A stretch of 64,000 nucleotides of DNA, taken from the sequence record MT446420.1. One strand, given 5' to 3'. This DNA is from Escherichia virus TH54. The notes beneath the pieces were generated by a model. That model was given only the letters and a program-made list of their open reading frames with translations. It did no database searches and was not told where the DNA came from. Numbering within the stretch: position 1 is the stretch's first letter; each line of letters opens with the position of its first letter. Shown in pieces: positions 3,576 through 63,904 of this stretch. The position numbers and the translations under genes were made by a program.

Positions 3576-4896
3576 AATATGCGTCGTACCTCGCTCGTGT
3601 GATTCCTACATAAGCCAACTGGCTCGCTAATGAAGCTTCGGCCATATGGATGCATGGAGTATAGATGAATGCTTTGTCCACTGAAACGCCCTGTGCCTTA
3701 TGGATTGTACTGACCGGAAGAGCACGAACTTTCAAGAAGGTCCTGCGCGCTTTCCAGAAGTCTTTCCACTCTGGACGTTTACCAGCGGCTTTCATCTGTT
3801 TGTATGTGTCAGCAACTTTCGCCAGATATGCCTGGAATTTTGGTTGCTGGTCTTCTGGTAAAACTTTAATGCGGTCAACCTGATATTCTTCATCTTCATC
3901 AATTGACTCAACTTCCAGGTCCCAGTAATTAATCACTAACTGGTGCGATTCACCTTTACAACGGAGAATGGTGGAAGTGTATTTGCAATCCTTGATGCGA
4001 ACCAACTGACCATTATTAAAAATAATTTCGCTGAATTTCTTTCCTTCAAATTCCAGCTCTTTCATGTGCGGCTCTTGCATAACCAGGACTTCATACAGTA
4101 AAAATGCTTTATCCGTTTCATATAGCTTGCGACGAATAATATTATTCAGTTTTTCAACTGATTTATTCGTGTACGCATACATCCTGTTTTCCATCAGCAT
4201 ATCAGCATCTTTTACAATACTGAAATAGTTTATCATGAAATCCTTTAAAGCGGTTTGTGAGGTGAAACCTTGTACGCCATGACCTTCATACATACAGTCA
4301 CGGAACCAACCCCCATTACGAATTTCTGTCGCCACTTCAATGATAGGAGCATTGCTTCGCATGACCTCAGTCAAATGAATCTGTTTGAACTTAGGATGCG
4401 TAAAGAATGGGCTTATCTTTTGTTGTGTGCTTCCTGGGTCAACTGGCTGCAGCTGGTGCATATCACCAATCCCAAGAATAGTACACCATTCAGGAACAGA
4501 GTTAAGAATAATCTTAAACAGAGACCCGTCATACATACTTGCTTCATCACAAACCAGAACATTGCATTTTGACATGTCAGGCATTTCGCGCTGTTCAAAA
4601 ACGTTTTGGTCTTCATACGTAGTCGGGTTAATCTTTAGGATACTATGGATTGTATTCGCTGTTTGACCAGACAATTTAGATAAAACTTTTTTCGCCTGGT
4701 GAGTTGGTGCAGCGAGCACAATTCCCATAACTCCATTTCGCACCAGATGGTCAATGACAAATTTTGTCAGAGTAGTCTTACCTGTGCCAGCTGGACCATT
4801 CAGAGTGATACATTCCCCTGAACGTCGCTGAATAGCTTCAGTGATATAATCAAAAGCTTCTTTTTGTCCTGTGTTCAAGTCTTCAAATTTAATCAT
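3568..4896 (-). CDS. dda: Dda-like SF1 DNA helicase
   Basis: 442 aa; Walker A GPAGTGKTT; overall resemblance to T4 Dda; synteny. Confidence 0.9.
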   Translation of the reverse strand: MIKFEDLNTGQKEAFDYITEAIQRRSGECITLNGPAGTGKTTLTKFVIDHLVRNGVMGIVLAAPTHQAKKVLSKLSGQTANTIHSILKINPTTYEDQNVFEQREMPDMSKCNVLVCDEASMYDGSLFKIILNSVPEWCTILGIGDMHQLQPVDPGSTQQKISPFFTHPKFKQIHLTEVMRSNAPIIEVATEIRNGGWFRDCMYEGHGVQGFTSQTALKDFMINYFSIVKDADMLMENRMYAYTNKSVEKLNNIIRRKLYETDKAFLLYEVLVMQEPHMKELEFEGKKFSEIIFNNGQLVRIKDCKYTSTILRCKGESHQLVINYWDLEVESIDEDEEYQVDRIKVLPEDQQPKFQAYLAKVADTYKQMKAAGKRPEWKDFWKARRTFLKVRALPVSTIHKAQGVSVDKAFIYTPCIHMAEASLASQLAYVGITRARYDAYYV

Positions 4897-9489: not shown

Positions 9490-9771
9490 TTACAATTTGG
9501 CGGCTTGGACTGCTTTATTGGCTTCGGTCATTTTAGCTAGATTTTCAGCAGTAGGATTAGCAATGTATTCAGCAGTAGCTTGGGCAAAAACATTATGAGT
9601 TTCGATTACATTTTTAGCATTTTCAGTATTCATAGCAATTTCTTGTTTAGATAAATTTTTTAGTTGATTGGCTAAAAGTTCTACAAAGATTTCAACATTA
9701 GCGTTTTCAATTATATCATTAATATGCTTCTTACGAGCTTTCTTAAGCTGACGTTTATTTAAACGAGCCAT
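9490..9771 (-). CDS. hypothetical protein
   Basis: 93 aa lysine-rich helical ORF. Confidence 0.45.
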   Translation of the reverse strand: MARLNKRQLKKARKKHINDIIENANVEIFVELLANQLKNLSKQEIAMNTENAKNVIETHNVFAQATAEYIANPTAENLAKMTEANKAVQAAKL

Positions 9772-10289
9772 TAATAACCTCGGTCTTGACGAGCGAAGTT
9801 TTCAGCATTTTTCAGATAATAAAGTTTAAAGATTTCTTCTGCTGACAGACCAAGACCATGGAACATGTTCAGAACAAAGTGCAGGATGTCAATCATCTCA
9901 AATTTAATTTCGAGCTGGTCTTCAGGAGACAACTCATCAATACGACGATTACGGAATTCAGCATGTTGGGCTTTCCAAGGCTTCCATACACTAGATGCAG
10001 CTTTCTCGCCATTAGACATACCACCGAGAGAAGTTAGAAGTTCACGGAATTCATCATCAACATAATCTTTCTGGTTACGAAGCCATGCAACAACATCGCC
10101 GGCGGTAGCCAATTCGTCTGGATGTGAGTTGTATTCTGGTTTTTCAGTAGCCAAACGGACCTGCAATGATTTCTGCATATCAAGCATAATCTGCAGCGGG
10201 TCAGTGCCTTCGATAATTGCATTGTCATAAGCTTCTTCAGCTTTATCAACGCCAGCAATCAGTTGGGAACACTCGTTAAAATGAGCCAT
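9771..10289 (-). CDS. 56: dCTP pyrophosphatase (MazG-like)
   Basis: Resembles T4 gp56 (MAHFNEC...DRGY); start set at ATG 10287-10289 after AAGGAAAAA. Confidence 0.85.
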   Translation of the reverse strand: MAHFNECSQLIAGVDKAEEAYDNAIIEGTDPLQIMLDMQKSLQVRLATEKPEYNSHPDELATAGDVVAWLRNQKDYVDDEFRELLTSLGGMSNGEKAASSVWKPWKAQHAEFRNRRIDELSPEDQLEIKFEMIDILHFVLNMFHGLGLSAEEIFKLYYLKNAENFARQDRGY

Positions 10290-14370: not shown

Positions 14371-14399
14371 ATAATAACACAACTAACGGAGAAGTAAAC
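14371..14399 (-). promoter_or_regulatory. early-type sigma70 promoter
   Basis: Reverse complement GTTTACT-N15-TATTAT then CCTATCAACTACTGGAGA leader. Confidence 0.45.
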
Positions 14400-14403
14400 T
14401 GTT

Positions 14404-14781
14404 TTAGAGATGATTGCAATAAGCAGTCCATTCAACATGGACCTTTTCACCATTAAAATCAAAAGCGATAATACGAGCGGCTTCATCTACATACTTATAC
14501 ATGTGATGGAAACTAACAGGAATATATTCACCTTTTCGGCAAACCATGATTTTATCGCCTTTAAACAAGGCTAAGTCATCATAAATCTCTTTAAGGCCGA
14601 TGAAATCGATTTCACGACCACGTCTGCCTTCAATCTGGATAATAGCTTTACCTGGGTAAAAATCGTAGGCGATTGGTACATTAGCTCGTGGAGCCAGGAT
14701 AACGAATTCAATTGCATTTTCAGAGAATTCTACATTTACGGATTCAGTGATTGCTTTAACGATGGCTTGTGAAAAGTTCAT
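14404..14781 (-). CDS. hypothetical protein
   Basis: 125 aa; own promoter upstream. Confidence 0.5.
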   Translation of the reverse strand: MNFSQAIVKAITESVNVEFSENAIEFVILAPRANVPIAYDFYPGKAIIQIEGRRGREIDFIGLKEIYDDLALFKGDKIMVCRKGEYIPVSFHHMYKYVDEAARIIAFDFNGEKVHVEWTAYCNHL

Positions 14782-14820
14782 AATAATTTCCTCTTAGTGC
14801 GTATTTGATTTACAAGGTCC

Positions 14821-14850
14821 ATAGTACCACGCCCATGTGGTAGTGTAAAC
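14821..14850 (-). promoter_or_regulatory. early-type sigma70 promoter
   Basis: Reverse complement GTTTACA-N17-TACTAT. Confidence 0.45.
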
Positions 14851-14925
14851 ACTTATTGTAAGCGAATATCTTTAACCTTACCTACAGTTTCACAATTATC
14901 ATGCCTACAGGAGATGTAAACCCCT

Positions 14926-14951
14926 AAAAACAAAAAAGGAGCCAAAGCTCC
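14926..14951 (-). terminator. rho-independent terminator after gene 41
   Basis: Hairpin GGAGCUUUGGCUCC directly after the stop codon, followed by UUUUUUGUUUUU. Confidence 0.6.
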
Positions 14952-16391
14952 TTAAAATTTGATAGATGCTGCTAAATCGTCCAAATCGCTTCTATTAACA
15001 CGCGTCTGACGATTGACCTCGGCTTGACGATTCATCTCACCGGTGGCTTCTTTAACCGTAGGACCTTGTTTAGGAGCTGAATCATCATCAACCTCGTACC
15101 AGCGCTGATTACCTTTCTTAACACCCATCTTGAATTTATTATAGTAGTTTTTATCGCCATAACGAGACTTAAGTTGTTTGATTAACTGCAGCCCCATTTG
15201 AGCGAATTCTTCGGTCTCAACAACACCCAACATAAAGTCAGCCGTGTGAGCAATACCAAAGGATTCTGCGATGTCAGCCATATCAATCTCAGCTGCAACG
15301 TTCGCGCCCCTGGTTGTCTGCGCTGCAGTCCACAGGACTACATTTTTCTCGACCGCCAGACCGCGAAGTTCTTCTGCGACCATCTTAATCAGGCCGTAAC
15401 TGTTTTCGGTAAACGTTTTCAGTCTTGAGCTTGCACAGATTGCCAGGTAGTCAACAATAATCACATCTGGCACAAACCCTTGCTTCAGCTTGTACTCGTT
15501 CAGTAATGCACGGAAGGTATCCGCATGAGCACCACCGGTTGGATATTGTTTTATCTTCAGAGTCCCGAGAGTCCCGGAAGCTCGCCATTTTTCCATCTTA
15601 CTTTTGTATTCTGCCCATGACATATGACCTTCATCAATATCATCCAGAGATACATCCAGCAAGTTGGCATCAATACGTTTGGCACATACTTCTTCGGCCA
15701 TTTCCATGCTTATATAAAGAACATTATGACCAGTCTGAAGATAGTCAGCAGCTAACGAACAAAGTCCAAGGGATTTACCGACGTTTGTCCCGGCCAGTAA
15801 AACGTTCTCTGTACCGTACTCAACCCCACCTTTCGTAATTTTATTCAGGATGTTAATACGGAACGGAACTTTCTTCGATTTGTTCAGATAAGTCTGGAAT
15901 CGAGCCTCGTAATCGTTTAACCAGTCATGGCCAAGGGCAGAATCAAAACAGATGGACAATGCATCACGCATGATGTCAGGGATAGCACCGATATCCGGGA
16001 TTCGTTTATCACGCTTATCTTTCGGAAGTTCGGCATTACTCTGGATTTCGATAATCCTGGATGTGGCATTGAACATCGCAGACTTCTGTACATACTTCTC
16101 GGTTTCTCTGACCAACCATTCCTGGTCTTCTGGAGTATCAACCAGAGCTCCTAAGAGTTTCTTTGTGCCTTCATATTCGACTTCAGAAAGGTCAGAACTA
16201 TCGAGCGCAATATCAAGTGCAGTCTTAGTTGGTACCGCTTGATATTCTTTTACGTGTTCGTTAATCGTATTAAAAAGGGTCTTTGCGGGACCCTTTTCAA
16301 AATATGTGTTATTCAGATATGGCCAGACTTTAACAAAATATTCCTTGTTAAAGAGTAGCTGGGATAAAATAGTTTCTACCACTTCCACCAC
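14952..16391 (-). CDS. 41: replicative DNA helicase (DnaB-like)
   Basis: 479 aa; Walker A GTNVGKS; strong resemblance to T4 gp41. Confidence 0.92.
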   Translation of the reverse strand: MVEVVETILSQLLFNKEYFVKVWPYLNNTYFEKGPAKTLFNTINEHVKEYQAVPTKTALDIALDSSDLSEVEYEGTKKLLGALVDTPEDQEWLVRETEKYVQKSAMFNATSRIIEIQSNAELPKDKRDKRIPDIGAIPDIMRDALSICFDSALGHDWLNDYEARFQTYLNKSKKVPFRINILNKITKGGVEYGTENVLLAGTNVGKSLGLCSLAADYLQTGHNVLYISMEMAEEVCAKRIDANLLDVSLDDIDEGHMSWAEYKSKMEKWRASGTLGTLKIKQYPTGGAHADTFRALLNEYKLKQGFVPDVIIVDYLAICASSRLKTFTENSYGLIKMVAEELRGLAVEKNVVLWTAAQTTRGANVAAEIDMADIAESFGIAHTADFMLGVVETEEFAQMGLQLIKQLKSRYGDKNYYNKFKMGVKKGNQRWYEVDDDSAPKQGPTVKEATGEMNRQAEVNRQTRVNRSDLDDLAASIKF

Positions 16392-16720
16392 CTCTTTTTC
16401 ATTTTAATCTTATCAATTTCATCTTGTATTTGCATTGTAACACACTTTTCTACATGCACTGCAAGCTCCGCTTTGCGGTCTTCAGAAGGGGTGCCGAAAT
16501 CAACTGAAACTTTTCCAGATGGTTCAATTTTAATTCCGGTTACGTACACGATGTGATTGGACCCATCAGGGAGTGATAACAGAATTTCCTGTCGCACAGT
16601 TCCCATGGATTGCCGGATAATCTCCAAACTTTTTTCGTAGTAAGGTACAGAAGGAGCCTTAGCTCCCTCCGCATCTTTCTCGAAATTATCTAAATCAGAT
16701 AAATCGATATCATTCATCAA
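16376..16720 (-). CDS. 40: gp40-like protein
   Basis: 114 aa between 41 and uvsX as in T4; size match. Confidence 0.6.
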   Translation of the reverse strand: MMNDIDLSDLDNFEKDAEGAKAPSVPYYEKSLEIIRQSMGTVRQEILLSLPDGSNHIVYVTGIKIEPSGKVSVDFGTPSEDRKAELAVHVEKCVTMQIQDEIDKIKMKKRWWKW

Positions 16721-17888
16721 GGTCTTCCATCATATCTAAATCGTTTTCGATATCTGCTGCAGATGGTTTTGCCTTACCTTCAGGAGCAGAGTATTTTTCA
16801 ACCTTGGAGGCAATAAGCGCATCAACTTCGGCATCAACAACAGCATTGCTATCAATTGCACCCAGCTGGTAATGACGTTTGATTGCGTCACGGAAAGGTT
16901 CGTGCTTGAACAACGGACCCCAGAATTCAGTACAGTTAGTATCTTTTGCACGCCATGATTTTTCTTCGCGGACCATTTCACCGGTCTCAACATCAAGATA
17001 TTCACGGTTATACCAACCAACTTTCGGTTTCACTACAAATCCGATTTCCATTGCCATATCAAGCAGGCCAGAATATGGGTCAATACCACCATCGAATTTT
17101 ACATCAATGAAGAATTTACTTTTCTCTTTGACCATACGAGATTTTTCGGCATTCAGAACAAATTGGAAACCTTCAAGTTCTTTACCAGTTTCTTTAATCT
17201 GGCGTTTGCCGATAATGAATACGGTGTCCGCAGAATACATAACACCTGTACCACCGGTCATAACGGTTTTGCTATACATCTCAATCGTCTCGATTGTATG
17301 GTTAACCGCGACACAAGGAATATCCTTGATACTAAAATATGGGGTAACAATACGGAACAGAGATTTCAGGGATTTAGCACGAGTCATATCGCCAACGACT
17401 TTTTCGTTCATCGCATCTTCTGTTTCTTTTTTTGACGCCATGTTACCGATTGAGTCAATAAAGATAATGACTTTTTCACCACGCTCAATTGCTTCAAGCT
17501 GGTTAACCATATCAACTTTCAATTGTTCAACCGACTGGATTGGTGTGTGGATAACACGCTCCGGGTCTACTTTCATTGCACGCAGATAGGCTTCTGTGAT
17601 ACCAAATTCTGAATCATAGAACAAACAGATTGCTTCGGGGTATTTGTTCATATATGCAGAGACCATCGTTAAACCCATATTGGATTTAAAGTGTTTTGAC
17701 GGACCAGCAAAAATAGTCAAACCTGACTGCATACCACCATCTAGTGCACCGCTGATTGCAATGTTCAGCATCGGGATTTTTGTACGAACTACATCTTTAT
17801 CATTAAAAAACTTGGACTTAGTAAGAGTCGCAGTCATTTTGGATGTAGAAGCTTTAATCAAACGGGATTTCAAATCTGCAATAGACAT
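16710..17888 (-). CDS. uvsX: RecA-like recombinase UvsX
   Basis: 392 aa; DLKSRLIKASTSK...GPSKHFKSN; strong resemblance to T4 UvsX. Confidence 0.92.
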   Translation of the reverse strand: MSIADLKSRLIKASTSKMTATLTKSKFFNDKDVVRTKIPMLNIAISGALDGGMQSGLTIFAGPSKHFKSNMGLTMVSAYMNKYPEAICLFYDSEFGITEAYLRAMKVDPERVIHTPIQSVEQLKVDMVNQLEAIERGEKVIIFIDSIGNMASKKETEDAMNEKVVGDMTRAKSLKSLFRIVTPYFSIKDIPCVAVNHTIETIEMYSKTVMTGGTGVMYSADTVFIIGKRQIKETGKELEGFQFVLNAEKSRMVKEKSKFFIDVKFDGGIDPYSGLLDMAMEIGFVVKPKVGWYNREYLDVETGEMVREEKSWRAKDTNCTEFWGPLFKHEPFRDAIKRHYQLGAIDSNAVVDAEVDALIASKVEKYSAPEGKAKPSAADIENDLDMMEDLDE

Positions 17889-17973
17889 TCATTTTTTCCA
17901 TAGGCACCATTATATTTTTCTCACAGGTTTAAGATAGGATAATTATATCACTGTATTTTTAGAGCAATTAATG

Positions 17974-18477
17974 TTAGTTAATACCTTGGCGGGCTTTCTC
18001 TTTAGCCACACATTTATTAATATAGCTCAGACGATTTTGAGCAGACCGCTGATACATATCGCGATACTCATTGGCTTTTGGAGAACCCGTCTCCGCTGCC
18101 TGATAAGCTTCCGCGCGTATGATGTTTATCTGCATATTGATGTATGACATGCAGACCTGTGAAATCTGGTTAACAGTATCCAAGTCATTTTGTCGCTTAG
18201 TTTCTGCTTCCAGCTTGGCAATGATTTCGTCATGCTTTGCAGCTTGCTCGCGTTTGTACTCAATTTCTTGTTGAGCATATTTTGCGCAGTTGTTTCCACA
18301 TTGATTGTTGTCGCGTTTGTAGATAAGTCCAGTACCACCTTTGAAATCAAAGGAACCATTATGCACCTGACGGTCTGCAGCAATTCGCGCTTTACCAATT
18401 TCACTGACATTAACTACATCGCCCTGGTAAGCACAACCAGATAGCAGCATAACAGCTGCGATAGCTAACTTTTTCAT
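17974..18477 (-). CDS. lipoprotein (signal peptide plus lipobox LLSGC)
   Basis: Start trimmed to ATG after GAGGAAAA (MKKLAIAAVMLLSGCAYQ); sits where T4 has beta-gt and 42. Confidence 0.6.
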   Translation of the reverse strand: MKKLAIAAVMLLSGCAYQGDVVNVSEIGKARIAADRQVHNGSFDFKGGTGLIYKRDNNQCGNNCAKYAQQEIEYKREQAAKHDEIIAKLEAETKRQNDLDTVNQISQVCMSYINMQINIIRAEAYQAAETGSPKANEYRDMYQRSAQNRLSYINKCVAKEKARQGIN

Positions 18478-18627
18478 TGTATTTTCCTCAATTAAAACAT
18501 TCATAGCGAGCTTGGAGCCCCAAAAATACCCAACCCAAAATTAAAGTTGGAATCATATGCGGAGTCATTATTGCCCAATAGATTGACATACTAAAAAATG
18601 CAATCAGTATAATAATTGTAATTATCT

Positions 18628-18870
18628 TCATTTGGTTTCCTTGATGATAATTACTTGTGCGTTTGATTTACGCTCAGCAACGAGTGCCCAGATAAATGCA
18701 ATAAACCATCCGACCATTGTCCAACCTAACAGGAGGTTAACAAAGAAGATTCCGCAATTACTTTTGGTTCCTCGCAGTAGTGCGATAATCCACGGCAGAA
18801 AATATGCCAGTGCAGCCAGGAAGAAAGAGCCAGCACCCAGAACAACAGTACCCGCAATTAATGTTTCCAT
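18628..18870 (-). CDS. imm: Imm-like membrane protein
   Basis: 80 aa, two TM helices, immediately before gene 43 as in T4. Confidence 0.65.
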   Translation of the reverse strand: METLIAGTVVLGAGSFFLAALAYFLPWIIALLRGTKSNCGIFFVNLLLGWTMVGWFIAFIWALVAERKSNAQVIIIKETK

Positions 18871-18907
18871 TTTAATATCCTTAAGTTATTCATCAGTTGA
18901 TGGAGTA

Positions 18908-18937
18908 ATCATACGGCAGTCCTTTGCCGTTGTAAAC
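18908..18937 (-). promoter_or_regulatory. early-type sigma70 promoter
   Basis: Reverse complement GTTTACA-N16-GTATGAT; overlaps the 3' end of gene 43. Confidence 0.45.
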
Positions 18938-18939
18938 AC

Positions 18940-21654
18940 TTAAAAGTCAAACATATCAAAAAGAGATGCTTTTTTCTCGTAATCAACCTTAGCTGCTTCA
19001 GAGAACCCTGTCAATGGCTTAACAAAAGTCTTCTGGAACAGTGTGTTGTAGTCCATCCACTGCAAGACTTGGTCACGAATTTCAATCGGGAGTTCAATCC
19101 CTGATGGCCACGCAATCACGGTTTCGCCAAACGGGTTACCAACTTTAAGAGGAAGCACATACACCTTTTCCCCTTCCATGATTTGTGGAACAGTCTTCAG
19201 CCCTTTGGTTGCACGCATGTAAGCAAGCACGCCTTTGATATGAGCCGGACACTTAAATCCAGGGAAACCACCCTCATTATATTTCTGGATGTTGTTAACC
19301 GATGATACACCTGCGATGGTCATGTAATTAAGCTCATTAAATTCCTTGTTGAATTCCTTGAAGTACGTCTGCAGAGATTCTTCACCTTCTTGCAACATAC
19401 GGCGGATACATTCTTTCAGAGCTTTCTGACATGCTTTTGGTGTGCTCGACTTTTGAGTTTCCAGACCCATGATTTTCAGTTTCGGAACAGCATATCGTGT
19501 GCCTTCCATATCGTACACGTTCAGAGCATAACGCTTCTTCGCCGTCCAGAATCCACCAACACCTTTAGAACCAAGTGGAGGACATGCAATCGCTTCACGG
19601 TCCATAAACATAAGGTGCTGTTTGTTGTTCATGTATTCAGCTAGTTCACGGAAAGCTTTATCGATTGCCGGTTCCAAACGGTCTTTCGCGAACTTGTCCA
19701 TGAAGTCAACCAGGTGGTTTGTATCGCGGAATTTAGATTCGCCACCAACCTTTTTAATCAGGTTATCGCACTGGATATAAATGGAGTCAGTATCGCCATA
19801 GAATACATATGTTTCACCACTTGTACCACAAACACTATCAAAATATTCGTTAACTTTACGCTCAATCCACTGCAATGCAAGTTGCCCGAAAGATGTAATC
19901 GCGGTTGCATTTCGCAGGTCAAAGTAACGGAACCAGATATTACCCAGAGCACCATAACAACTGTTGATAAGCAGTTTACGGTTAATCTGTGCGGTCATGC
20001 CTGCGACTTCTTCCATCTGCGCTTTGTACAACATACCATTCAGAACTGTTTGATTCAGACCGTGCAAGGTTGTTTTCATATTGTCATCGAAGTCATAACG
20101 ATAATCAACTTCAGGCTCGGTTGTACCAGTTCCTGGATTACGCAGGGCTTCCTTAATCAGTTCACCATTACGTTGAGCCGCAAGCATATAACCTTTGTGC
20201 TCTTTACGCTGATTAAACACCTTGGTGACTTCTGTTGGAATAATACCCGCAACATCTTTAAAATACATCATACCGTTTGGAGCACAACTAAATGTATCAG
20301 ATGGACGGTCAGCAGTTCCTGCAATGTATTCATACATCGGCGCTGGTGCAAATGACCCGGCAATCGTTTCTGGACTGATGTTAATCTGTCGGATGATGCT
20401 CGGATACAGAGATGTTAAGTCACAGCTCATAACGTATTTGTATGCGTTCGGAATAGGTTCCTTAACAAATGCACCTGGGAACGATTGACGAACATGCGAT
20501 TTGGTTTCCGGAATGACTTTGTTTTGAGTCTTCAGGCTGTTAAAGATAATCGCATCCCAAGTTTTGATTGGGCTGAATACAGACTGAATCTGCATTTTTG
20601 CGTAATAACCCATTGACTGGCTAAGGTTAATAAACTGGCGCTTACGGTCAATCTGTACAACACGATAAACATCGATGATGTTATAAGAAATATACCGTTG
20701 GTGATTTGATTCACGCAGTTTAGAAATCGGACCATCATATGGGAGTTTACCAACACCCAGCTCAGATTCCGCAACATAATCCAACGAATAAGATGGCTGG
20801 TTTGTGAAGCTGAACTTTTTATACAGGTCCAGATAATCCAGAACAGAGATACCCAGAATCTGAATGATTTCTTGTTCTTCACCGAATCCGTTGTTAATGA
20901 CCTTAACTTTTGTACGACGATGTGGACTCAGACGTTTTGCTGTAGCTTCACCAAACACATTTTTAAGGCGGTTGTAGATATATGGAATATCAAACTTCTC
21001 GATGTTCCAACCAGTTAACATAACCGGAGTTTTCTCGTTCCAGAATACCAAATACTGCTGGAGCATTTCTTCTTCTGAATCGAAAGCCATATAAACAATT
21101 TTTTCCAGGATTTCTTCAGGGACTTCATCGCCGCCATCTTCTTGCAGCTTAGCAGCAATATCGATAGACCATTGCTCCACAGTGGCGTATGGTGAGCTCA
21201 AAAGGTCAAAGACATAGAATTTATCGTCTACCGAATCATAGTGCGTCAGGGCATCAATAGGGTGACGTGCTTCAGACGGCTCAGGGAACCCATCAGGAGA
21301 TGTCACCTCGATATCGAAGTTAGCCACACGGATTTTACTTGAATCGTATTTGATTTCGTGCGGGTAACGGTCGGACAAGTATGCGAGTTTAAAGTCATCC
21401 ATACCCATAGCTTCGAGACCCATGTCATTCATTCGCTTCATCCACTGGGATGCATCACGCATGGAGTCGAATTCTTTTTTCACACAACCTTTATTATAGA
21501 TGTCTGTATACTTTGCAGCCTGGTCTTCGCGGGCATGCATAAACAAGCATGGAGCATAAGGGATTTCACGAACACGTTCATGACCGTTCTTGTCAATGTA
21601 TCGTTCGAGTAGATTGTCACCGATTTGTTCGATAGTTAAATAAAATTCTTGCAT
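18940..21654 (-). CDS. 43: family B DNA polymerase
   Basis: 904 aa; exonuclease motifs and polymerase motif YGDTDS; collinear resemblance to T4 gp43. Confidence 0.95.
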   Translation of the reverse strand: MQEFYLTIEQIGDNLLERYIDKNGHERVREIPYAPCLFMHAREDQAAKYTDIYNKGCVKKEFDSMRDASQWMKRMNDMGLEAMGMDDFKLAYLSDRYPHEIKYDSSKIRVANFDIEVTSPDGFPEPSEARHPIDALTHYDSVDDKFYVFDLLSSPYATVEQWSIDIAAKLQEDGGDEVPEEILEKIVYMAFDSEEEMLQQYLVFWNEKTPVMLTGWNIEKFDIPYIYNRLKNVFGEATAKRLSPHRRTKVKVINNGFGEEQEIIQILGISVLDYLDLYKKFSFTNQPSYSLDYVAESELGVGKLPYDGPISKLRESNHQRYISYNIIDVYRVVQIDRKRQFINLSQSMGYYAKMQIQSVFSPIKTWDAIIFNSLKTQNKVIPETKSHVRQSFPGAFVKEPIPNAYKYVMSCDLTSLYPSIIRQINISPETIAGSFAPAPMYEYIAGTADRPSDTFSCAPNGMMYFKDVAGIIPTEVTKVFNQRKEHKGYMLAAQRNGELIKEALRNPGTGTTEPEVDYRYDFDDNMKTTLHGLNQTVLNGMLYKAQMEEVAGMTAQINRKLLINSCYGALGNIWFRYFDLRNATAITSFGQLALQWIERKVNEYFDSVCGTSGETYVFYGDTDSIYIQCDNLIKKVGGESKFRDTNHLVDFMDKFAKDRLEPAIDKAFRELAEYMNNKQHLMFMDREAIACPPLGSKGVGGFWTAKKRYALNVYDMEGTRYAVPKLKIMGLETQKSSTPKACQKALKECIRRMLQEGEESLQTYFKEFNKEFNELNYMTIAGVSSVNNIQKYNEGGFPGFKCPAHIKGVLAYMRATKGLKTVPQIMEGEKVYVLPLKVGNPFGETVIAWPSGIELPIEIRDQVLQWMDYNTLFQKTFVKPLTGFSEAAKVDYEKKASLFDMFDF

Positions 21655-27437: not shown

Positions 27438-28453
27438 GGTTGTACCTCAAGATATAATTTGTTGGCCAATGCTTTAAGAGCTTTTGATTCTTTCTCATTG
27501 GTGTCAGGTAATGCATCAATATATTCTGCCATCATATCAGTTAAGCGTTTTATGTCTAACTCTTCTTCGGAGTCAGTCGTATCAACACTGTTATCAACCT
27601 TATTAACAACACGCAATTCATGCACACGCTTTTCTAATTCAGATTCGAACTTGGTCAGGTCTTTATCGACTTTTTCTACAATAACACGGACTGATAAGTC
27701 TTTGAAGTCGTCGTAGTTAATAGTTTCGTTTGGATAGAAAATCTTCCGATGCCAAGTGGTTTCATTCGGAATAAATTTCATCTCTTCGGTTTCTGTATCA
27801 AATTCCCAGAATCCGCGCGGGTCATTCTCATCACCTGCTGTTAATGTCCATGGCGTTCCTATGTACTTAACGTTCGCAGCTTCTGAAATGGTATGGAAGT
27901 GCCCAGACCAAACTTGCTTGTACTTCTTAAGGAAATCAGGCTCAAGCCCGTGGGATTTCAATCCTTTATAGAAATAAAACCCGGTTAATTCCCAGTGACC
28001 GATGCAATATTCAGCACCAGAAGTTTTGATATGTTGGTGAATGTCAGTCGCGTTCTCGTCACACATCCATGGAATCATATCAATCTGACAACCGTCAAAA
28101 TCAACAGTCGTTGGCTTGTCGTAGATTTTAACATGGTCATACTTATTCAGGAGTTCGGTGATAGCATTAGGATGAATCTTATTCTTCAGATTCATGTCAT
28201 GGTTCCCGACTATCGTGTGCATAGTAATTCCTGCTTCACGAAGGAGTTCCATAATCTCGCGGCTGAATTCCATTGTCTTATGCGTTACGGCCTTACGGAC
28301 GTCAAAAATATCACCATATTGAATCCAAACTTTAATTCCATTCGCTTTGGAATATGCAATCGCCTGTAAAATACCATCACGTTGAATGTTTTGAGCCCAT
28401 GGGTCGTCAGCTTTGACACCCAAGTGCCAATCACCTAAATTTAAAATTTTCAT
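27434..28453 (-). CDS. 47: recombination nuclease subunit (Mre11/SbcD-like)
   Basis: Start trimmed to MKILNLGDWHLG; phosphoesterase motifs GDWH and GNHD; resemblance to T4 gp47. Confidence 0.9.
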   Translation of the reverse strand: MKILNLGDWHLGVKADDPWAQNIQRDGILQAIAYSKANGIKVWIQYGDIFDVRKAVTHKTMEFSREIMELLREAGITMHTIVGNHDMNLKNKIHPNAITELLNKYDHVKIYDKPTTVDFDGCQIDMIPWMCDENATDIHQHIKTSGAEYCIGHWELTGFYFYKGLKSHGLEPDFLKKYKQVWSGHFHTISEAANVKYIGTPWTLTAGDENDPRGFWEFDTETEEMKFIPNETTWHRKIFYPNETINYDDFKDLSVRVIVEKVDKDLTKFESELEKRVHELRVVNKVDNSVDTTDSEEELDIKRLTDMMAEYIDALPDTNEKESKALKALANKLYLEVQP

Positions 28454-28598
28454 AAGCCAAGCGCCGTTATCGCAGTGCAAAATAAAATTATTGAAATGAA
28501 CCCGTCAGGAGTAGAAAAGAATCCTATCCAACAAGCTCGTGTGAATGTGTAGAATGCCATGAATAACACAACATATCCTAAAAATAATTCCATATAAT
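28452..28598 (-). CDS. small membrane peptide coupled to gene 47
   Basis: GAGGAGATTAT before ATG; hydrophobic 48 aa; stop overlaps the gene 47 ATG. Confidence 0.35.
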
Positions 28599-28633
28599 CT
28601 CCTCAGTTGGTTCATTTTATCATCCCGAATATA

Positions 28634-28660
28634 AAGCAAAAAAGGAAGCACTAGGCTTCC
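28634..28660 (-). terminator. rho-independent terminator
   Basis: Stem GGAAGC/GCUUCC followed by UUUUUUGCUUU on the minus-strand RNA. Confidence 0.5.
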
Positions 28661-29089
28661 TTTCCAATTAATACACCATACAGAGGTTCGCGATTAGACT
28701 TGAACTTGATTTTCTTATGGGTAATAGTACCTTCATTTTCTGCTTTAATACGAGCGGCTTCAAATTGAAGTATCATCTCATTTTTGCCAGATTTAATCTT
28801 ATCAAAATCCATCGAATTCGTCATTCATATGACCTCTTAAACTTTTTCGTATTCGTCATTCATAAGCTTAAAAATCCGGGTGTTCGTCTTCAAAGCAACC
28901 GATATTCATCGCTGCCACCACTTCTTAAGTTGATGAGAATCGACCCAAACCTTGGCCACAGGCTCAATCTGAAAAATACCATCAGAATACTGACCAACCA
29001 TTTTATATTCGGTTTCGGTCTGCTTGATACAGATATTACCGTATGAGCGAAGTCTGAAAGCGGCTCCAACAAGAAGCCGTTTAAAAGGT

Positions 29090-29401
29090 TTATTTACTAA
29101 TGCCATTTACGATTTCCCAAATTTGTTTGCGAGTAGTTTCCCACATCAACTTAATCAGGTCTTCCGTAACTGGTTGGCGGTAAATTCCACGCAGTTTAAC
29201 TAAAGCATATTTGTATGCTTCAAAATTGTTTTCCAGCACTGCCCCTTGAGCATGCTTATTCAGTCGTGCAATTTCACGAGCATTCTTTTTCAGAATCTTT
29301 GCTGCTTGACTCTGTGCTTCGAGTGCGTTCGCTTCTTCGAGACGTTCCTGTGCTTCTTCAATCTGCTTATCGGTCAGTTGAGAAATATCTGGAGCTTGCA
29401 T
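29090..29401 (-). CDS. hypothetical protein
   Basis: 103 aa helical. Confidence 0.45.
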   Translation of the reverse strand: MQAPDISQLTDKQIEEAQERLEEANALEAQSQAAKILKKNAREIARLNKHAQGAVLENNFEAYKYALVKLRGIYRQPVTEDLIKLMWETTRKQIWEIVNGISK

Positions 29402-29402
29402 A

Positions 29403-29654
29403 TTAATCCTTGGGAGTTAACTCAATTGTAAAATATAGATTAGCATTATCCACATGATAACGGTAATCAACGTTATTATCCGGTGAAGTAAATTCCAGAT
29501 TCCGGACGTTTAAAGGGTCGATATCAATTGGAAGACCTTTTATGTCTCGCAGATAAAGTTTAATGAAATATGGGAGCGCAGTAAAGTCTTCCTCGATTTT
29601 ATCTAAAAAATCGGTAATATCAAATTGATGTTCCATATAAAAAATCCAAATCAC
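29403..29654 (-). CDS. hypothetical protein
   Basis: 83 aa. Confidence 0.45.
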
Positions 29655-33458: not shown

Positions 33459-33929
33459 TTAATCATGTTTCCACACCCCATCGGTATTTGACCAAAGTCG
33501 CTGATTATCTGACCCTCGCCACAGTTTTTTGGTCGGAAGATTTTTCTCATACTTCCCATCAATAATAACATCAACATATTTAAGCATTTCTAGTTGTTTA
33601 ATATCTTCAAACTTATATCCCGTCCACATCCAAATGCTTTTATTGGGATAAAGATTTTTAATAGTTTGAACCACAGAGTGAATAACATCTCGGTTATCAG
33701 GATAGAGAGGGTCTCCTCCGGTTATAGTTAATCCTTCTATATAATCATTATTCAAACATTCAATTAATTGTTCTAGTGTTTCACCAGTAAATGGAACACC
33801 ATTTCTAGCATTCCATGTTGATTTATTATAACACCCTTCGCATTTATGCAAACAACCTGTAACGAAAAGAACGACCCTGCATCCAGGGCCATTTACAAAA
33901 TCGCAAGGATAAATTCTATCATAATTCAT
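33459..33929 (-). CDS. nrdG: anaerobic ribonucleotide reductase activating protein (radical SAM)
   Basis: 156 aa; Cys cluster CLHKCEGCYN; overlaps nrdD. Confidence 0.85.
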   Translation of the reverse strand: MNYDRIYPCDFVNGPGCRVVLFVTGCLHKCEGCYNKSTWNARNGVPFTGETLEQLIECLNNDYIEGLTITGGDPLYPDNRDVIHSVVQTIKNLYPNKSIWMWTGYKFEDIKQLEMLKYVDVIIDGKYEKNLPTKKLWRGSDNQRLWSNTDGVWKHD

Positions 33930-35743
33930 TGGTGTTTAACCCTATGCATGATTTCTTTATTTTTGCCGAGATTAAATCCGCGTTCGTTCGGATTTCCCAA
34001 ATAACCACAAGTTCTTCTTATTGTGTTCATCTTTTTAGGGTCAGTTTCTCCACAAATAGAACAAACAAATCCGTTTTCAGTAGGAGTCATTTCATGGGTA
34101 CTTCCACATGTAAAACATTTATCTACTGGCATATTAACACCAAAATAATCTAAATGTTGTGCAGCATAATCCCACACAGCCTCAAGACCTTTTAGATTAT
34201 TTTTCATATCAGGAAGTTCAACATAAGAAATATGTCCGCCTGTCGCAATGAAATGATATGGTGCTTCGCGAGAAATCTTTTCAAACGGGGTGATATTTTC
34301 TTCTACTGAAACATGGAAACTATTAGTGTACCAGCCTTTATCAGTAACATCTTTTACACTTCCATATTTTTCAGTATCAAGTTTACAGAAGCGATAGCAC
34401 AGGTTTTCAGCAGGAGTAGAATACAAGCTAAAAGCAAAACCGGTTCTTTCGGTCCACTGCTTAAGACGAGCATTCATTTTAGTTAAAATTTCTTGCCCAA
34501 TATCACGACCGACAAGAATATTCAATTCGTGAATACCAATGTATCCCAAAGACACTGAACTTCTACCGTTTTTAAATAACTCAATTATATCATCATCGGG
34601 TTTAAGACGAACCCCGAATGCACCTTCTTGGTAAAGAATAGGAGCAACAGTCGCTTTAACTCCTTTTAAGGAATTAATTCTACACATCAAAGCTTCAAAA
34701 CACAAATCCATTCGCTCATTGAACAATTCAGTAAATTTCTGTTCATTGAACTGTGTTCCAATATAAGAATCTAACGCAATACGAGGAAGATTCAGTGTTA
34801 CAACGCCAAGATTATTACGCCCATCAAGAATTTCATTACCAGTCGAATCTTTCCATACGCCCAAGAAACTACGGCAACCCATTGGAGAAACAGGAATAGA
34901 TGAACCGGTGATAGCTTTGTTATTCTTAGCCGAAATGATGTCAGGATACATTCTTTTGCTTGCACACTCTAAAGCAAGCTGCTTAATATCATAGTTCGGG
35001 TCGTCTTTATAAAGATTAACACCTTCTTCAACGAACATAACAAGTTTAGGGAAAATAGGAGTTATCCCATCACGACCAAGACCTTTAATACGATTTTTCA
35101 GAATTGCTTTCTGAATCATTCGTTCAGTCCAATCAGTTCCCGTACCAAATGTAATGGTTACAAAAGGCGTTTGTCCATTTGAACTAAAGAGAGTATTTAC
35201 TTCATATTCATAAGCTTGGAATGCATCGTATACGTCTTTTTCTGTTTTAGATTGGGCATAATTCAATGCATCAGTGATTTGCCATTTTTCTGCGTCTTCA
35301 ATATGTTTTGCGTATGTACGTTTAACATAAGGAGAAAATACTTTGTCTACATTAGCAAAAGTCGTTCCGCCATATTGGTGAGAAGCAACCTGTGCAGTAA
35401 TTTGTGCCATAATTGCAGTAGCAACACCAATTGATTTAGGAGTTTCAATCTGTGCATTACCGAGTTTAAATCCGTTCTCAAGCATTCCTTTTAAATCTAC
35501 TAAACAGCAATTAGTAAATGGAAGAGCAGGGGAATAATCAATATCATGGAAATGAATAATTCCACTTTCATGTGCTTTCATAATAAAAGACGCAACCATA
35601 TTTTTGGCAATGTGTTTAGATACAATACCAGCCATAAGGTCACGTTGAGTTGGAAAAACACGAGAATCTTTATTAGCATTCTCGTTTAAAAGGTCTTTAT
35701 TAGTTTTATGAATCAATCCTTCAATTTCGTTTTCAATTGTCAT
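33926..35743 (-). CDS. nrdD: anaerobic ribonucleoside-triphosphate reductase
   Basis: 605 aa; C-terminal glycyl-radical region RTCGYLG and zinc-ribbon cysteines. Confidence 0.92.
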   Translation of the reverse strand: MTIENEIEGLIHKTNKDLLNENANKDSRVFPTQRDLMAGIVSKHIAKNMVASFIMKAHESGIIHFHDIDYSPALPFTNCCLVDLKGMLENGFKLGNAQIETPKSIGVATAIMAQITAQVASHQYGGTTFANVDKVFSPYVKRTYAKHIEDAEKWQITDALNYAQSKTEKDVYDAFQAYEYEVNTLFSSNGQTPFVTITFGTGTDWTERMIQKAILKNRIKGLGRDGITPIFPKLVMFVEEGVNLYKDDPNYDIKQLALECASKRMYPDIISAKNNKAITGSSIPVSPMGCRSFLGVWKDSTGNEILDGRNNLGVVTLNLPRIALDSYIGTQFNEQKFTELFNERMDLCFEALMCRINSLKGVKATVAPILYQEGAFGVRLKPDDDIIELFKNGRSSVSLGYIGIHELNILVGRDIGQEILTKMNARLKQWTERTGFAFSLYSTPAENLCYRFCKLDTEKYGSVKDVTDKGWYTNSFHVSVEENITPFEKISREAPYHFIATGGHISYVELPDMKNNLKGLEAVWDYAAQHLDYFGVNMPVDKCFTCGSTHEMTPTENGFVCSICGETDPKKMNTIRRTCGYLGNPNERGFNLGKNKEIMHRVKHQ

Positions 35744-43134: not shown

Positions 43135-43881
43135 ATGATTTTATCCGGAAGAACTGTTGATGAACTCAATGAAAAAGTCCAGGCTGCCTTGGCTAATAAT
43201 TGGTATTTGTTTGGTTCGACTATGGTGTTGCCGAATACCCCTACGGATAGCAAAGAGCGTTTTTTCCAAACTATGTCCAGCTCGGAAACTCAGATACCGG
43301 GTCCACCTGGTCCCAAAGGAGAACCGGGTGTACCAGGACCAAAAGGAGACCCAGGTGGGGATGGAAAATCTTCTTATCAGATATGGCTTGACTTGGGAAA
43401 TACAGGAACTGTTGATGATTTTTTAACTGATACAGCAGGAAAGAGGGAAAAATCCGAGGTGTTTTGGAGTGGTATAAACGTTCTATTAACCAATGGTGTG
43501 ACTTCAAACATAATTAGTGTTTTAAAGGGGATTCCACCGACTGCAGGGACTCTATCTCCGTTTTTTAGAACCACTGATGATAAGTTGTGGCCATATAACC
43601 AAGACAGAAGCCTAATGTTTAAACTCAACCTTATTGGTAATTTTGCAGGAGCCTCGCAAGCTCGAAGTATAACATTAAATTTCGTTGGAACCAACGGAAA
43701 CACTTATATACAGAATCGTCCGGAAAATGCTACAGATATTTTGTCTTTTACAACGTTCTTTAGCATTGATAAAGATGGGGCAATGGCAACCAATGGTACA
43801 GCTATAACTGTTATGCCAAATGGCGGCAACTTTACAATAACCTCTGCATTGTTAGTAGCCGAACAAACAGTGACTTCATAA
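43135..43881 (+). CDS. collagen-repeat, tail-fibre-like protein
   Basis: Plus strand; AAAGGAGAAAG Shine-Dalgarno; eight G-X-Y triplets (GPPGPKGEPGVPGPKGDPGGDG) followed by SSYQIWLDLGNTGT. Confidence 0.6.
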   Translation: MILSGRTVDELNEKVQAALANNWYLFGSTMVLPNTPTDSKERFFQTMSSSETQIPGPPGPKGEPGVPGPKGDPGGDGKSSYQIWLDLGNTGTVDDFLTDTAGKREKSEVFWSGINVLLTNGVTSNIISVLKGIPPTAGTLSPFFRTTDDKLWPYNQDRSLMFKLNLIGNFAGASQARSITLNFVGTNGNTYIQNRPENATDILSFTTFFSIDKDGAMATNGTAITVMPNGGNFTITSALLVAEQTVTS

Positions 43882-63478: not shown

Positions 63479-63904
63479 TTATTTTTGAGCTTTGCGGAAG
63501 TTGGAAGCATAAGACTGAACAACAGTCTTTTTGATATCATGGGTGGTAACCAGAACATCAATCAGAGCGCGTCGAGCTGCATTATCATTCATATCAATTT
63601 CTGCAAATGCCTGGAAGCAAATGTCACGGGCGTTACCCGATTTGGACCGGATTTTTTCTTCTTTAACTTCTTCAATTGGGAATTCAATCATTTCAGCTTG
63701 GATTAATTCAATGATAGATTCTTTTGACTGTTTGGTGTTTACCTTCAGTTCAGAATTAAGGGACTTGGCGATGGCAACAATCTGGGTTGAAGTCAGATGA
63801 ATAAGTGCATCTTCACGAATGCAGATTTCACATACTTCGTCAGCAACCATTTTGTTGGTGATGCGGGTAACAGAGAATGCAGAGGTCAGGGTCAGAAAGT
63901 TCAT
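63479..63904 (-). CDS. hypothetical protein, C-terminal paralog of 62595..63026
   Basis: Track ORF trimmed to MNFLTLT after GGAGAAATAAA; C-terminal DNAARRALIDVLV...KTVVQSYASNFRK. Confidence 0.5.
   Translation of the reverse strand: MNFLTLTSAFSVTRITNKMVADEVCEICIREDALIHLTSTQIVAIAKSLNSELKVNTKQSKESIIELIQAEMIEFPIEEVKEEKIRSKSGNARDICFQAFAEIDMNDNAARRALIDVLVTTHDIKKTVVQSYASNFRKAQK

Follow-up and report, generated by a model that had tools for sequence, protein, structure and literature searches.

Organisation of the gene 43–uvsX region

We analysed a 64-kb stretch of the Escherichia virus TH54 genome (MT446420.1; hereafter the window), concentrating on a putative lipoprotein gene and its neighbours between the DNA polymerase gene 43 and the recombinase gene uvsX, the position at which other T-even groups carry a cytosine-modification cassette. 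No such cassette is present here, and a single-residue change in the thymidylate synthase gene (td) of close relatives leads us to favour 5-methylcytosine (5mC) as the modified base of these phages. The window has a G+C content of ~40%, and its minus strand carries nearly all genes, including every gene of this locus.

The upstream boundary of the locus is gene 43 (18940–21654, minus strand), whose product of 904 amino acids (aa) is 98% identical to VR7 gp43 and 60% identical to T4 gp43. Downstream of it, after a 69-bp spacer, lies imm (18628–18870, minus strand), encoding a small superinfection immunity membrane protein (Pfam PF14373, Imm_superinfect, E = 1e-17, above the gathering score) with 52% identity to T4 Imm and 68% to JS98 Imm. 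This is followed by a hydrophobic open reading frame (ORF) of 47 aa (18488–18631, minus strand; PHROG 3610, E = 1.6e-26), which is labelled 42.1 in VR7, corresponds to JS98 orf44 and is Y02C-like with respect to T4; tblastn matched it to orf44 and to the T4 42–imm spacer, and at another locus (L019) a 47-residue ORF with a PF26865 match lies two genes downstream of a lipoprotein homologue. The third gene (17974–18477, minus strand) starts with an ATG at 18477, preceded by a GAGGA ribosome-binding site, and encodes the lipoprotein of 167 aa. The initial annotation had regarded the lipoprotein as the only gene between uvsX and imm; its coordinates, length and LLSGC lipobox stand, but the 47-aa ORF had been overlooked.

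The stop codon of imm overlaps the start of the 47-aa ORF (ATGA), and the lipoprotein ATG lies 10 nt past the stop of the latter. A consensus scan placed a sigma-70-like promoter 5' of imm (18908–18936, minus strand; TTTACA, 17 nt, TATGAT; 10 of 12 positions matching). Because of this promoter and the overlapping or tight gene spacing, the three genes look like one early transcription unit, probably driven as a whole from this promoter, if its consensus match reflects its function. An 85-bp spacer (17889–17973, minus strand), the site of the modification cassette in JS98, separates the lipoprotein gene from the downstream boundary, uvsX (16710–17888, minus strand), which encodes a RecA-like recombinase of 392 aa with 99% identity to VR7 UvsX and 80% to T4 UvsX; genes 40 and 41 adjoin uvsX on its far side, also on the minus strand. 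Read against the T4 middle-promoter consensus, this spacer contains a MotA-box-like element, ATTGCTCTA (17968–17960, minus strand), followed after 12 nt by TATAAT (17947–17942), which together are likely to form a MotA-type middle promoter for uvsX. The spacer sequence is identical in TH57, VR7 and MN01, and its 60 uvsX-proximal bases share 93% identity with the DNA just 5' of JS98 uvsX. At the junction of the lipoprotein gene and the uvsX promoter, some gapriverviruses, such as MN01 (locus L016, 1369–1632) and VR7, have an additional very small ORF or two for membrane peptides (35 and 42 aa), which are absent from the window and from TH57; the 42-aa peptide has a homologue beside JS98 uvsX.

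A megablast search with the 16700–19000 segment returned 32 phage records matching over almost the full length. Escherichia virus TH57 was the best match (99.6%) and is 92–98% identical to the window as a whole. The records whose taxonomy was checked (TH57, EAWsc9, VR7 and MN01) all belong to Gaprivervirus (Tevenvirinae). Judged by these similarities, the window derives from a Gaprivervirus of the VR7/SP18/TH57 type, and the locus is the normal form that the variable gene 43–uvsX region takes in this genus. The window represents 64 kb of a genome of ~171 kb; whole-genome absence checks were run on TH57 (complete, 171,230 bp, 97% identical to the window), and the hand-annotated VR7 genome was inspected over 144 kb of its feature table, skipping 95–120 kb.

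Comparison with T4 and Dhakavirus JS98

The T4 gene order is 43, imm.1, imm, 42, beta-gt, segA, uvsX; the initial annotation had correctly placed beta-gt and 42 between uvsX and imm in that phage, and alpha-gt between 47 and 55. In JS98, a member of the nearest sister genus, Dhakavirus, the order is 43, imm, orf44 (the homologue of the 47-aa ORF), orf43, orf42 to orf38, uvsX. Here orf43 encodes a protein of 166 aa with a lipobox and 52% identity to the window lipoprotein, while orf38–orf42 form an RB69-type cassette, in which orf39 is a diverged thymidylate-synthase homologue (24.5% identity to T4 gp42) and orf41 and orf42 encode sugar-nucleotide enzymes. Cassettes of this type, found in Dhakavirus and Mosigvirus, combine a 5-hydroxy-deoxycytidine monophosphate (5-hydroxy-dCMP) synthase with arabinosylation genes; the RB69/Dhakavirus version, associated with arabinosyl-5-hydroxycytosine, comprises a 5-hydroxy-dCMP synthase carrying D169N, a SIS isomerase, a nucleotidyltransferase-kinase and arabinosyltransferases. 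It occupies the same position, and the JS98 copy adjoins the same trio of lipoprotein gene, 47-aa ORF and imm, whereas in the window all five cassette genes are missing, leaving a clean absence of ~4.2 kb between the lipoprotein gene and the uvsX promoter. Because JS98 has both the trio and the five-gene cassette, the comparison indicates that the lipoprotein belongs to this locus as a conserved component and does not substitute for 42 and beta-gt, contrary to what had been implied at first. Published lists of genera with the arabinosylation cluster do not include Gaprivervirus (PMC13326640).

Absence of cytosine-modification genes and retention of the dCTPase

Neither the window nor the complete TH57 genome gave a tblastn match to T4 gp42, beta-gt, alpha-gt or Dam (for the glucosyltransferases, none at E < 1) or to any of the JS98 cassette genes orf38–orf42, and Pfam scans of 30 further window ORFs (the larger unnamed ones) detected no glycosyltransferase, thymidylate-synthase or methyltransferase domain. 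TH57 has a single locus of the thymidylate-synthase family. The inspected part of the VR7 annotation lists no gene 42, glucosyltransferase or dam, and does list 56, cd, td, frd, alc, denA, denB, ndd and gp1. A homologue of T4 Arn was likewise not found. In the interval between 47 and 55 (28450–29636), we found neither alpha-gt nor mobB; every ORF there is of 103 aa or less, and mapping to VR7, JS98 and T4 identified them as 47.1 (28450–28593), a-gt.2 (28651–28824), a-gt.3 (28906–29106), a-gt.4 (29090–29401) and a-gt.5 (29403–29636), all on the minus strand. Gene 56 (9771–10289, minus strand), by comparison with its homologues, is a full-length dCTPase/dUTPase gene of the MazG-like nucleoside triphosphate (NTP) pyrophosphohydrolase type, with 68.6% identity to T4 gp56 over 172 aa (PHROG 173, NTP pyrophosphohydrolase). 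The initial reading of the window, with no gp42 or glucosyltransferase, only small ORFs between 47 and 55, and an intact dCTPase, is therefore borne out by these searches.

That reading had left three options: modification genes elsewhere in the genome, no modification, or a different modification. The first was addressed by the search for gp42 and glycosyltransferase homologues that it had called for, run here on TH57, and is contradicted by it: the complete TH57 genome contains no gp42, glucosyltransferase, Dam or arabinosylation genes, and only its single thymidylate-synthase-family locus. TH54 might still carry genes of its own in the ~107 kb outside the window, given that only 64 kb of ~171 kb were in view and that this is a mosaic phage with Dhakavirus-like segments (its gp56 is 86% identical to that of JS98) and one ORF shared with a Salmonella phage. 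We regard this as very improbable: the position of the cassette between 43 and uvsX is fixed in T4, JS98 and distant relatives and is empty here, no such genes occur anywhere in TH57 or in the 144 kb of VR7 annotation, and the cassette-less arrangement is common to 32 records of the genus. From the searches above, no part of the Gaprivervirus genome contains the modification cassette that other T-even groups have in this position, which in T4 consists of gene 42 and beta-gt.

Some smaller observations concern the same genes. The gp56 allele of the window shares 86% identity with JS98 gp56 versus 72% with VR7 gp56, and an exchange of dCTPase alleles between genera of differing cytosine chemistry may merit a look. 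The segF homing-endonuclease slot beside gene 56 (9490–9771, minus strand) holds an unrelated 93-aa ORF, as it does in TH57. A 141-aa ORF (63479–63904, minus strand; PHROG 9997), absent from JS98, is labelled as cytidine/deoxycytidylate deaminase-like in VR7; it was considered as a modification enzyme and rejected, having no HxE/PCxxC motif and no Pfam deaminase match, and the label looks spurious.

The combination of a missing gp42 with a retained dCTPase, Alc, DenA and DenB has already been described as a paradox of Gaprivervirus (PMC8056088, PMC12115623), for which the authors propose an unknown non-canonical base; in one of these two papers, advice on therapeutic use of the phages was withheld over the open identity of the base. 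With T4, Gaprivervirus shares the genome architecture, the 43–uvsX and 47–55 intervals, and gp56, gp1, Cd, Alc, DenA, DenB and Ndd, whereas gp42, alpha-gt, beta-gt, Dam and Arn belong to the T4 pathway only. Restriction analysis in a study of the BREX defence system found that VR7 'has modified cytosines' and that its DNA is unglycosylated (PMC6326788). In the same study, the T4147 control is labelled 'hydroxymethylated' and VR7 is labelled differently, and BREX is stated to be a complete barrier to VR7, as it is to the unmodified phage VpaE1.

Could Gaprivervirus DNA contain ordinary cytosine, the cassette having simply been lost and Alc, DenB, DenA and gp56 having been re-tuned or restrained, with dUTPase activity as the chief role left to gp56, as in RB49 and RB43? 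Both of those phages keep DenA and gp56 homologues with unmodified, transducible DNA (PMC8056088), the DenB of Gaprivervirus has strongly diverged, and the complete block of VR7 by BREX resembles that of an unmodified phage. We nevertheless consider it improbable, as Alc, DenB and Ndd are all kept intact and the available restriction data report modified cytosines in VR7 (PMC6326788). The same data contradict the second option of the initial annotation, which also conflicts with the retention of Alc, DenA, DenB, Ndd and the dCTPase; of the three options, a different modification is favoured by the evidence.

We also asked whether divergence of the proteins that act on or around phage DNA carries a signal of a changed base. 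Alc, DenB and gp1 all fall in the lowest decile of TH57–JS98 identity, a pattern that was set aside as a general signal, since with T4 as outgroup only DenB proved lineage-specific; on that comparison Alc evolves fast everywhere, and gp1 was compared between TH57 and JS98 only. DenB is 71% identical between T4 and JS98, whereas the TH57 protein shares only 47–48% with either, a divergence that is consistent with a changed base.

Thymidylate synthase residues in Gaprivervirus

As td lies outside the window, its residues were taken from relatives that are 92–99% identical to it. In Gaprivervirus, td encodes a full-length thymidylate synthase (286 aa, PF00303) with a PPCH motif containing the catalytic Cys146; it shares 68% identity with T4 Td (PDB 1TIS, E = 8e-128). 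The motif GLPFNIASY, present in T4, in JS98 and in all solved thymidylate synthases shown, is replaced in VR7 and TH57 by GLPFDIGSY, corresponding to a change of Asn177 to Asp (E. coli ThyA numbering) accompanied by A179G; the altered motif is also found in the SP18 and P8 clusters and in VR20, VR25 and VR26. Among the 120 closest protein clusters, Asp177 is present in all four Gaprivervirus Td clusters (the SP18 type with 73 members, the vB_YenM_P8 type and two more) and Asn177 in 114 of the 116 other T4-like clusters (Tequatrovirus, Mosigvirus, Dhakavirus and Klebsiella phages); the last two are P0070, a metagenomic sequence (67% identical) with Asp, and a cluster that falls outside the motif pattern. 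At the level of genomes, 32 phage records have the Gaprivervirus type of td, and they include all 30 of the listed records with the cassette-less uvsX–imm arrangement.

Aligned to E. coli ThyA at positions 143, 146, 147, 169 and 177, Gaprivervirus Td reads Leu, Cys, His, Asp and Asp, and the Td of JS98 and Tequatrovirus reads Leu, Cys, His, Asp and Asn. T4 gp42 (Asp, Cys, Thr, Asp, Asp) and JS98 orf39 (Glu, Cys, Thr, Asn, Asp) share Asp177 but differ from Gaprivervirus Td at 143 and 147, and orf39 also at 169, where the Gaprivervirus enzyme keeps Asp. According to published work, N177D makes dCMP the substrate, Leu143 goes with a methyl product and Asp/Glu143 with a hydroxymethyl product, and D169N yields a 5-hydroxy-dCMP synthase (PMC13326640, PMC8670742). 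Gaprivervirus Td, with Leu143, lacks the gp42-type dCMP hydroxymethylase signature and has the residues of a 5-methyl-dCMP (5mdCMP) synthase (Cys146, Asp177, Leu143 and Asp169), as read from the td of relatives; it also retains the thymidylate-synthase C-terminus.

There are precedents for such an enzyme, both engineered and natural. The E. coli N177D and L. casei N229D mutants switch from deoxyuridine monophosphate to dCMP as substrate and make 5-methyl-dCMP (cited in PMC8670742 and PMC13326640). They carry the same single substitution in an otherwise canonical enzyme; these are laboratory mutants, whereas the Gaprivervirus change is natural, fixed in the genus and accompanied by A179G and ~23 other lineage-specific substitutions. 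Natural enzymes for which residue 177 predicts dCMP as the substrate, that of XP12 included, make 5mdCMP, and the phages that make it deaminate the methylated nucleotide to obtain thymidine nucleotides, so that a second thymidylate synthase is unneeded (bioRxiv 2024.12.05.627091). In the 5mC system of Xanthomonas phage XP12 and Pseudomonas phage PaMx74, a thymidylate-synthase homologue acts as a dCMP methyltransferase alongside a deaminase of 5mC nucleotides. Like Gaprivervirus, this system has a single thymidylate-synthase homologue with Asp177 and Leu143 and no second one, together with a dCMP-deaminase-family enzyme and a dCTPase-type pyrophosphatase, and the prediction is that all cytosine is exchanged at the level of the nucleotides. 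Gaprivervirus differs from these phages in its E. coli host, its 170-kb myovirus genome and the T4-like origin of its Td.

VR7 Td shares only 34–47% identity with other viral Asp177 enzymes and, as a Gaprivervirus enzyme, 68% with T4 Td, so the substitution arose within the T4-like td lineage and not by transfer. The P0070 sequence comes from a T4-like frd–td contig of 5417 bp (locus L015, Logan SRR24146912; gene at 3953–4831) and encodes a 292-aa Td with the motif GLPFDIASY and 67% identity to Gaprivervirus Td. We considered it as an independent Asp177 event and rejected this, as it has 14 of 25 lineage-specific substitutions in common with Gaprivervirus and is a deeper branch of the same clade; it may mark another T4-like lineage, so far unsampled, that has this predicted dCMP methylase as well. 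No relatives were found in IMG/VR, so there is no independent replicate of the correlation between Asp177 and loss of gp42. The same database did yield 24 non-T4-like viral contigs (5–57 kb; loci L022–L048) with the motif GxPFDI[AG]SY, and all 23 whose thymidylate-synthase ORF could be read through the five positions have Leu143, Cys146, His147, Asp169 and Asp177, at only 34–47% identity to VR7 Td; they likely represent further 5mC phages.

A proposed route to 5-methylcytosine

Because its single Td has Asp177 yet keeps Leu143, His147 and Asp169, we favour, with moderate confidence, the prediction that Gaprivervirus DNA carries 5mC. In the pathway envisaged, gp56 would convert dCTP to dCMP, Td with Asp177 would methylate dCMP to 5-methyl-dCMP, and the gp1 kinase with the host nucleoside diphosphate kinase would raise this to the triphosphate, from which the polymerase would build 5mC-containing DNA. 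The modification would shield the phage DNA from its own Alc, DenA and DenB, and deoxythymidine monophosphate (dTMP) would be obtained either through Cd, by deaminating the 5-methyl-dC nucleotide, or through host ThyA. The genes present, the five residues and their occurrence throughout the genus are shown by the sequences, and modified cytosines in VR7 by published restriction evidence; what the enzyme makes, which base results and how dTMP is supplied are inferred. The absence of gp42 and of the glucosyltransferases is already in the literature; the explanation through a single td residue is new here, and our literature searches found no statement of 5mC in any Straboviridae phage.

Genus-wide fixation of Asp177 also speaks further against ordinary cytosine, since in an otherwise canonical enzyme this residue would abolish normal dTMP synthesis for no benefit. 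A rival that we consider unlikely is a cytosine derivative of another kind: Td with Asp177 might make non-glycosylated 5-hydroxymethyl-dCMP or another C5 adduct, or an unrecognised enzyme might be hidden among the hypothetical genes. Two papers have proposed an unknown non-canonical base, the restriction study speaks only of 'modified cytosines' (PMC6326788), only five of seven predicted 5mdCMP synthases were confirmed experimentally (bioRxiv 2024.12.05.627091), and Td also contains A179G and further lineage-specific substitutions. On the other side, Leu143 is kept and correlates with methyl over hydroxymethyl products, as are His147, Asp169 and the thymidylate-synthase C-terminus; the T4147 control and VR7 bear different labels in the same study (PMC6326788). 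A genome-wide screen found no enzyme-sized gene common to TH57 and VR7 yet absent from JS98, which leaves no sizeable enzyme-like candidate of that distribution.

Several points weigh against 5mC itself. The TH54 allele of td is extrapolated from its relatives, A179G and the other 23 lineage-specific substitutions may affect the enzyme, and the divergence of Alc is not lineage-specific. Fully 5mC-substituted DNA is an expected substrate of McrBC. These phages propagate on K-12 MG1655 and BL21, and given this growth and the lack of a detectable Arn homologue, a counter-measure to McrBC must be postulated. The published restriction assay does not name the base (PMC6326788).

More tentatively, and with somewhat less confidence than in 5mC as such, we suggest that gapriverviruses may be the first T4-like phages (Straboviridae) with 5mC in place of cytosine. 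In this scenario, the in-place N177D change in td would have allowed loss of the cassette while gp56, Alc, DenA and DenB persisted, the last of them in re-tuned form; thymidylate would be supplied by deamination of the methylated nucleotide, and an anti-McrBC function would have to exist. The single-residue explanation is specific and cheaply testable, and it would account for the published Gaprivervirus paradox. If true, one substitution in a housekeeping gene would have switched the chemistry of the phage DNA, after which a whole modification cassette was discarded. Such phages would be sensitive to McrBC-type, MspJI-type and BREX systems and resistant to many type II enzymes, and would provide a natural, E. 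coli-grown source of DNA fully substituted with 5mC.

The lipoprotein encoded beside imm

The N-terminus of the lipoprotein, MKKLAIAAVMLLSG/C, contains a standard lipobox (LLSG/C) with the features of a signal peptidase II substrate, and the alignment of 22 family members shows the lipobox in nearly all of them. The residue at +2 is Ala, from which the E. coli Lol rule predicts sorting to the outer membrane. Also conserved are a GxGxxY hairpin, a QCGxNC motif and two further Cys residues that probably form disulfides. The AlphaFold (AF2) model (pLDDT 76.7) consists of a flexible linker, a beta-hairpin, a helix of ~68 residues and a terminal helical bundle, the last modelled confidently. Foldseek comparison with the PDB gave a best E-value of 0.9, with generic helical hairpins only, and the BFVD returned only uncharacterised T4-like homologues; the protein belongs to PHROG 1754 and matched no Pfam family at E = 0.01.

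A set of 1.8 billion proteins yields just 17 clusters of this family at 50% identity, and all members whose context or source was examined come from a T4-like phage or contig, so that on present searches it is a conserved orphan family of T4-like phages. Within the genus, the ratio of non-synonymous to synonymous substitution rates (dN/dS) is 0.02–0.06, similar to that of uvsX; the gene is under strong purifying selection and, on this basis, is a genuine gene. Between TH57 and JS98 the protein shares 51% identity, which places it among the more diverged orthologues. In more distant T4-like contigs, the homologue directly follows gene 43, no imm separating the two, and SIS and nucleotidyltransferase genes come next; gene 43 is thus its constant neighbour.

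What the protein does can be narrowed only loosely. Its inferred co-transcription with imm makes a periplasmic role alongside imm, in envelope protection or superinfection exclusion, our best guess, though a doubtful one, and Imm in the inner membrane, the 47-aa membrane peptide and the lipoprotein, predicted for the outer membrane, might form a periplasm-spanning exclusion complex. Pfam, PDB and BFVD searches linked the lipoprotein to no characterised exclusion protein by fold or family, and the distant homologues lack an adjacent imm, both of which weigh against this. The exclusion lipoproteins of other phages, T5 Llp and Cor of phi80 and N15, are likewise small outer-membrane proteins expressed early and offer a functional analogy; no sequence, Pfam or fold similarity to them was detected.

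It is quite possible, if still short of probable, that the lipoprotein serves the envelope in another way, such as lysis timing, stabilisation of the outer membrane during infection, or masking of receptors against loss of progeny on debris. This would suit the distant homologues that directly follow gene 43 without imm, the finding that no known exclusion protein, Llp and Cor included, resembles it, and the presence in T4 of another lipoprotein, Imm.1 (DUF5481), at the corresponding place. It accords less well with the packing of the gene with imm behind one promoter in both Gaprivervirus and Dhakavirus, and with its place among the fastest-diverging TH57–JS98 orthologues, as expected of arms-race proteins. 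Imm.1 itself, also a lipoprotein of the 43–uvsX early region, shares 54% identity over 28 aa with the window protein (BLASTP, residues 3–29), but it lies upstream of imm (between 43 and imm), matches PF17578 at 5e-72 and is otherwise unrelated. Homology to Imm.1 was rejected: the signal peptide and ~14 further residues are all that align, and the window protein has no DUF5481 match even at E = 10. On its own, the lipoprotein is an uncharacterised envelope protein of modest interest.

Other variable segments of the window

Three further segments vary among the relatives compared. A 248-aa ORF on the opposite strand to its neighbours (43135–43881, plus strand), in the early nrdC region, encodes a short collagen-like stretch followed by a tail-needle-knob domain of the Sf6 type (Pfam Phage_tail_NK, E = 3e-32). 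The 1-kb segment containing it is absent from TH57, VR7 and JS98, present at 97–99% identity in eight other gapriverviruses and partial in 11 more records; its presence in some gapriverviruses and absence from others marks it as a polymorphic insertion. At 33459–35743 (minus strand), the window, like TH57, has genes for an anaerobic ribonucleotide reductase (nrdD, 605 aa) and a radical-SAM activase (nrdG, 156 aa); tblastn found no match to either in 144 kb of VR7 or in the JS98 genome, so the anaerobic supply of deoxynucleoside triphosphates appears to vary within the group. Finally, a 125-aa ORF upstream of gene 41 (14404–14781, minus strand) matches no Pfam family and is missing from TH57, VR7 and JS98. 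The segment around it (14383–15024) matched over its full length only Salmonella phage vB_SalM_ABTNLsp5 (98%), while the adjoining end of gene 41 is 96% identical to that of Dhakavirus-type phages, which suggests mosaic exchange between genera.

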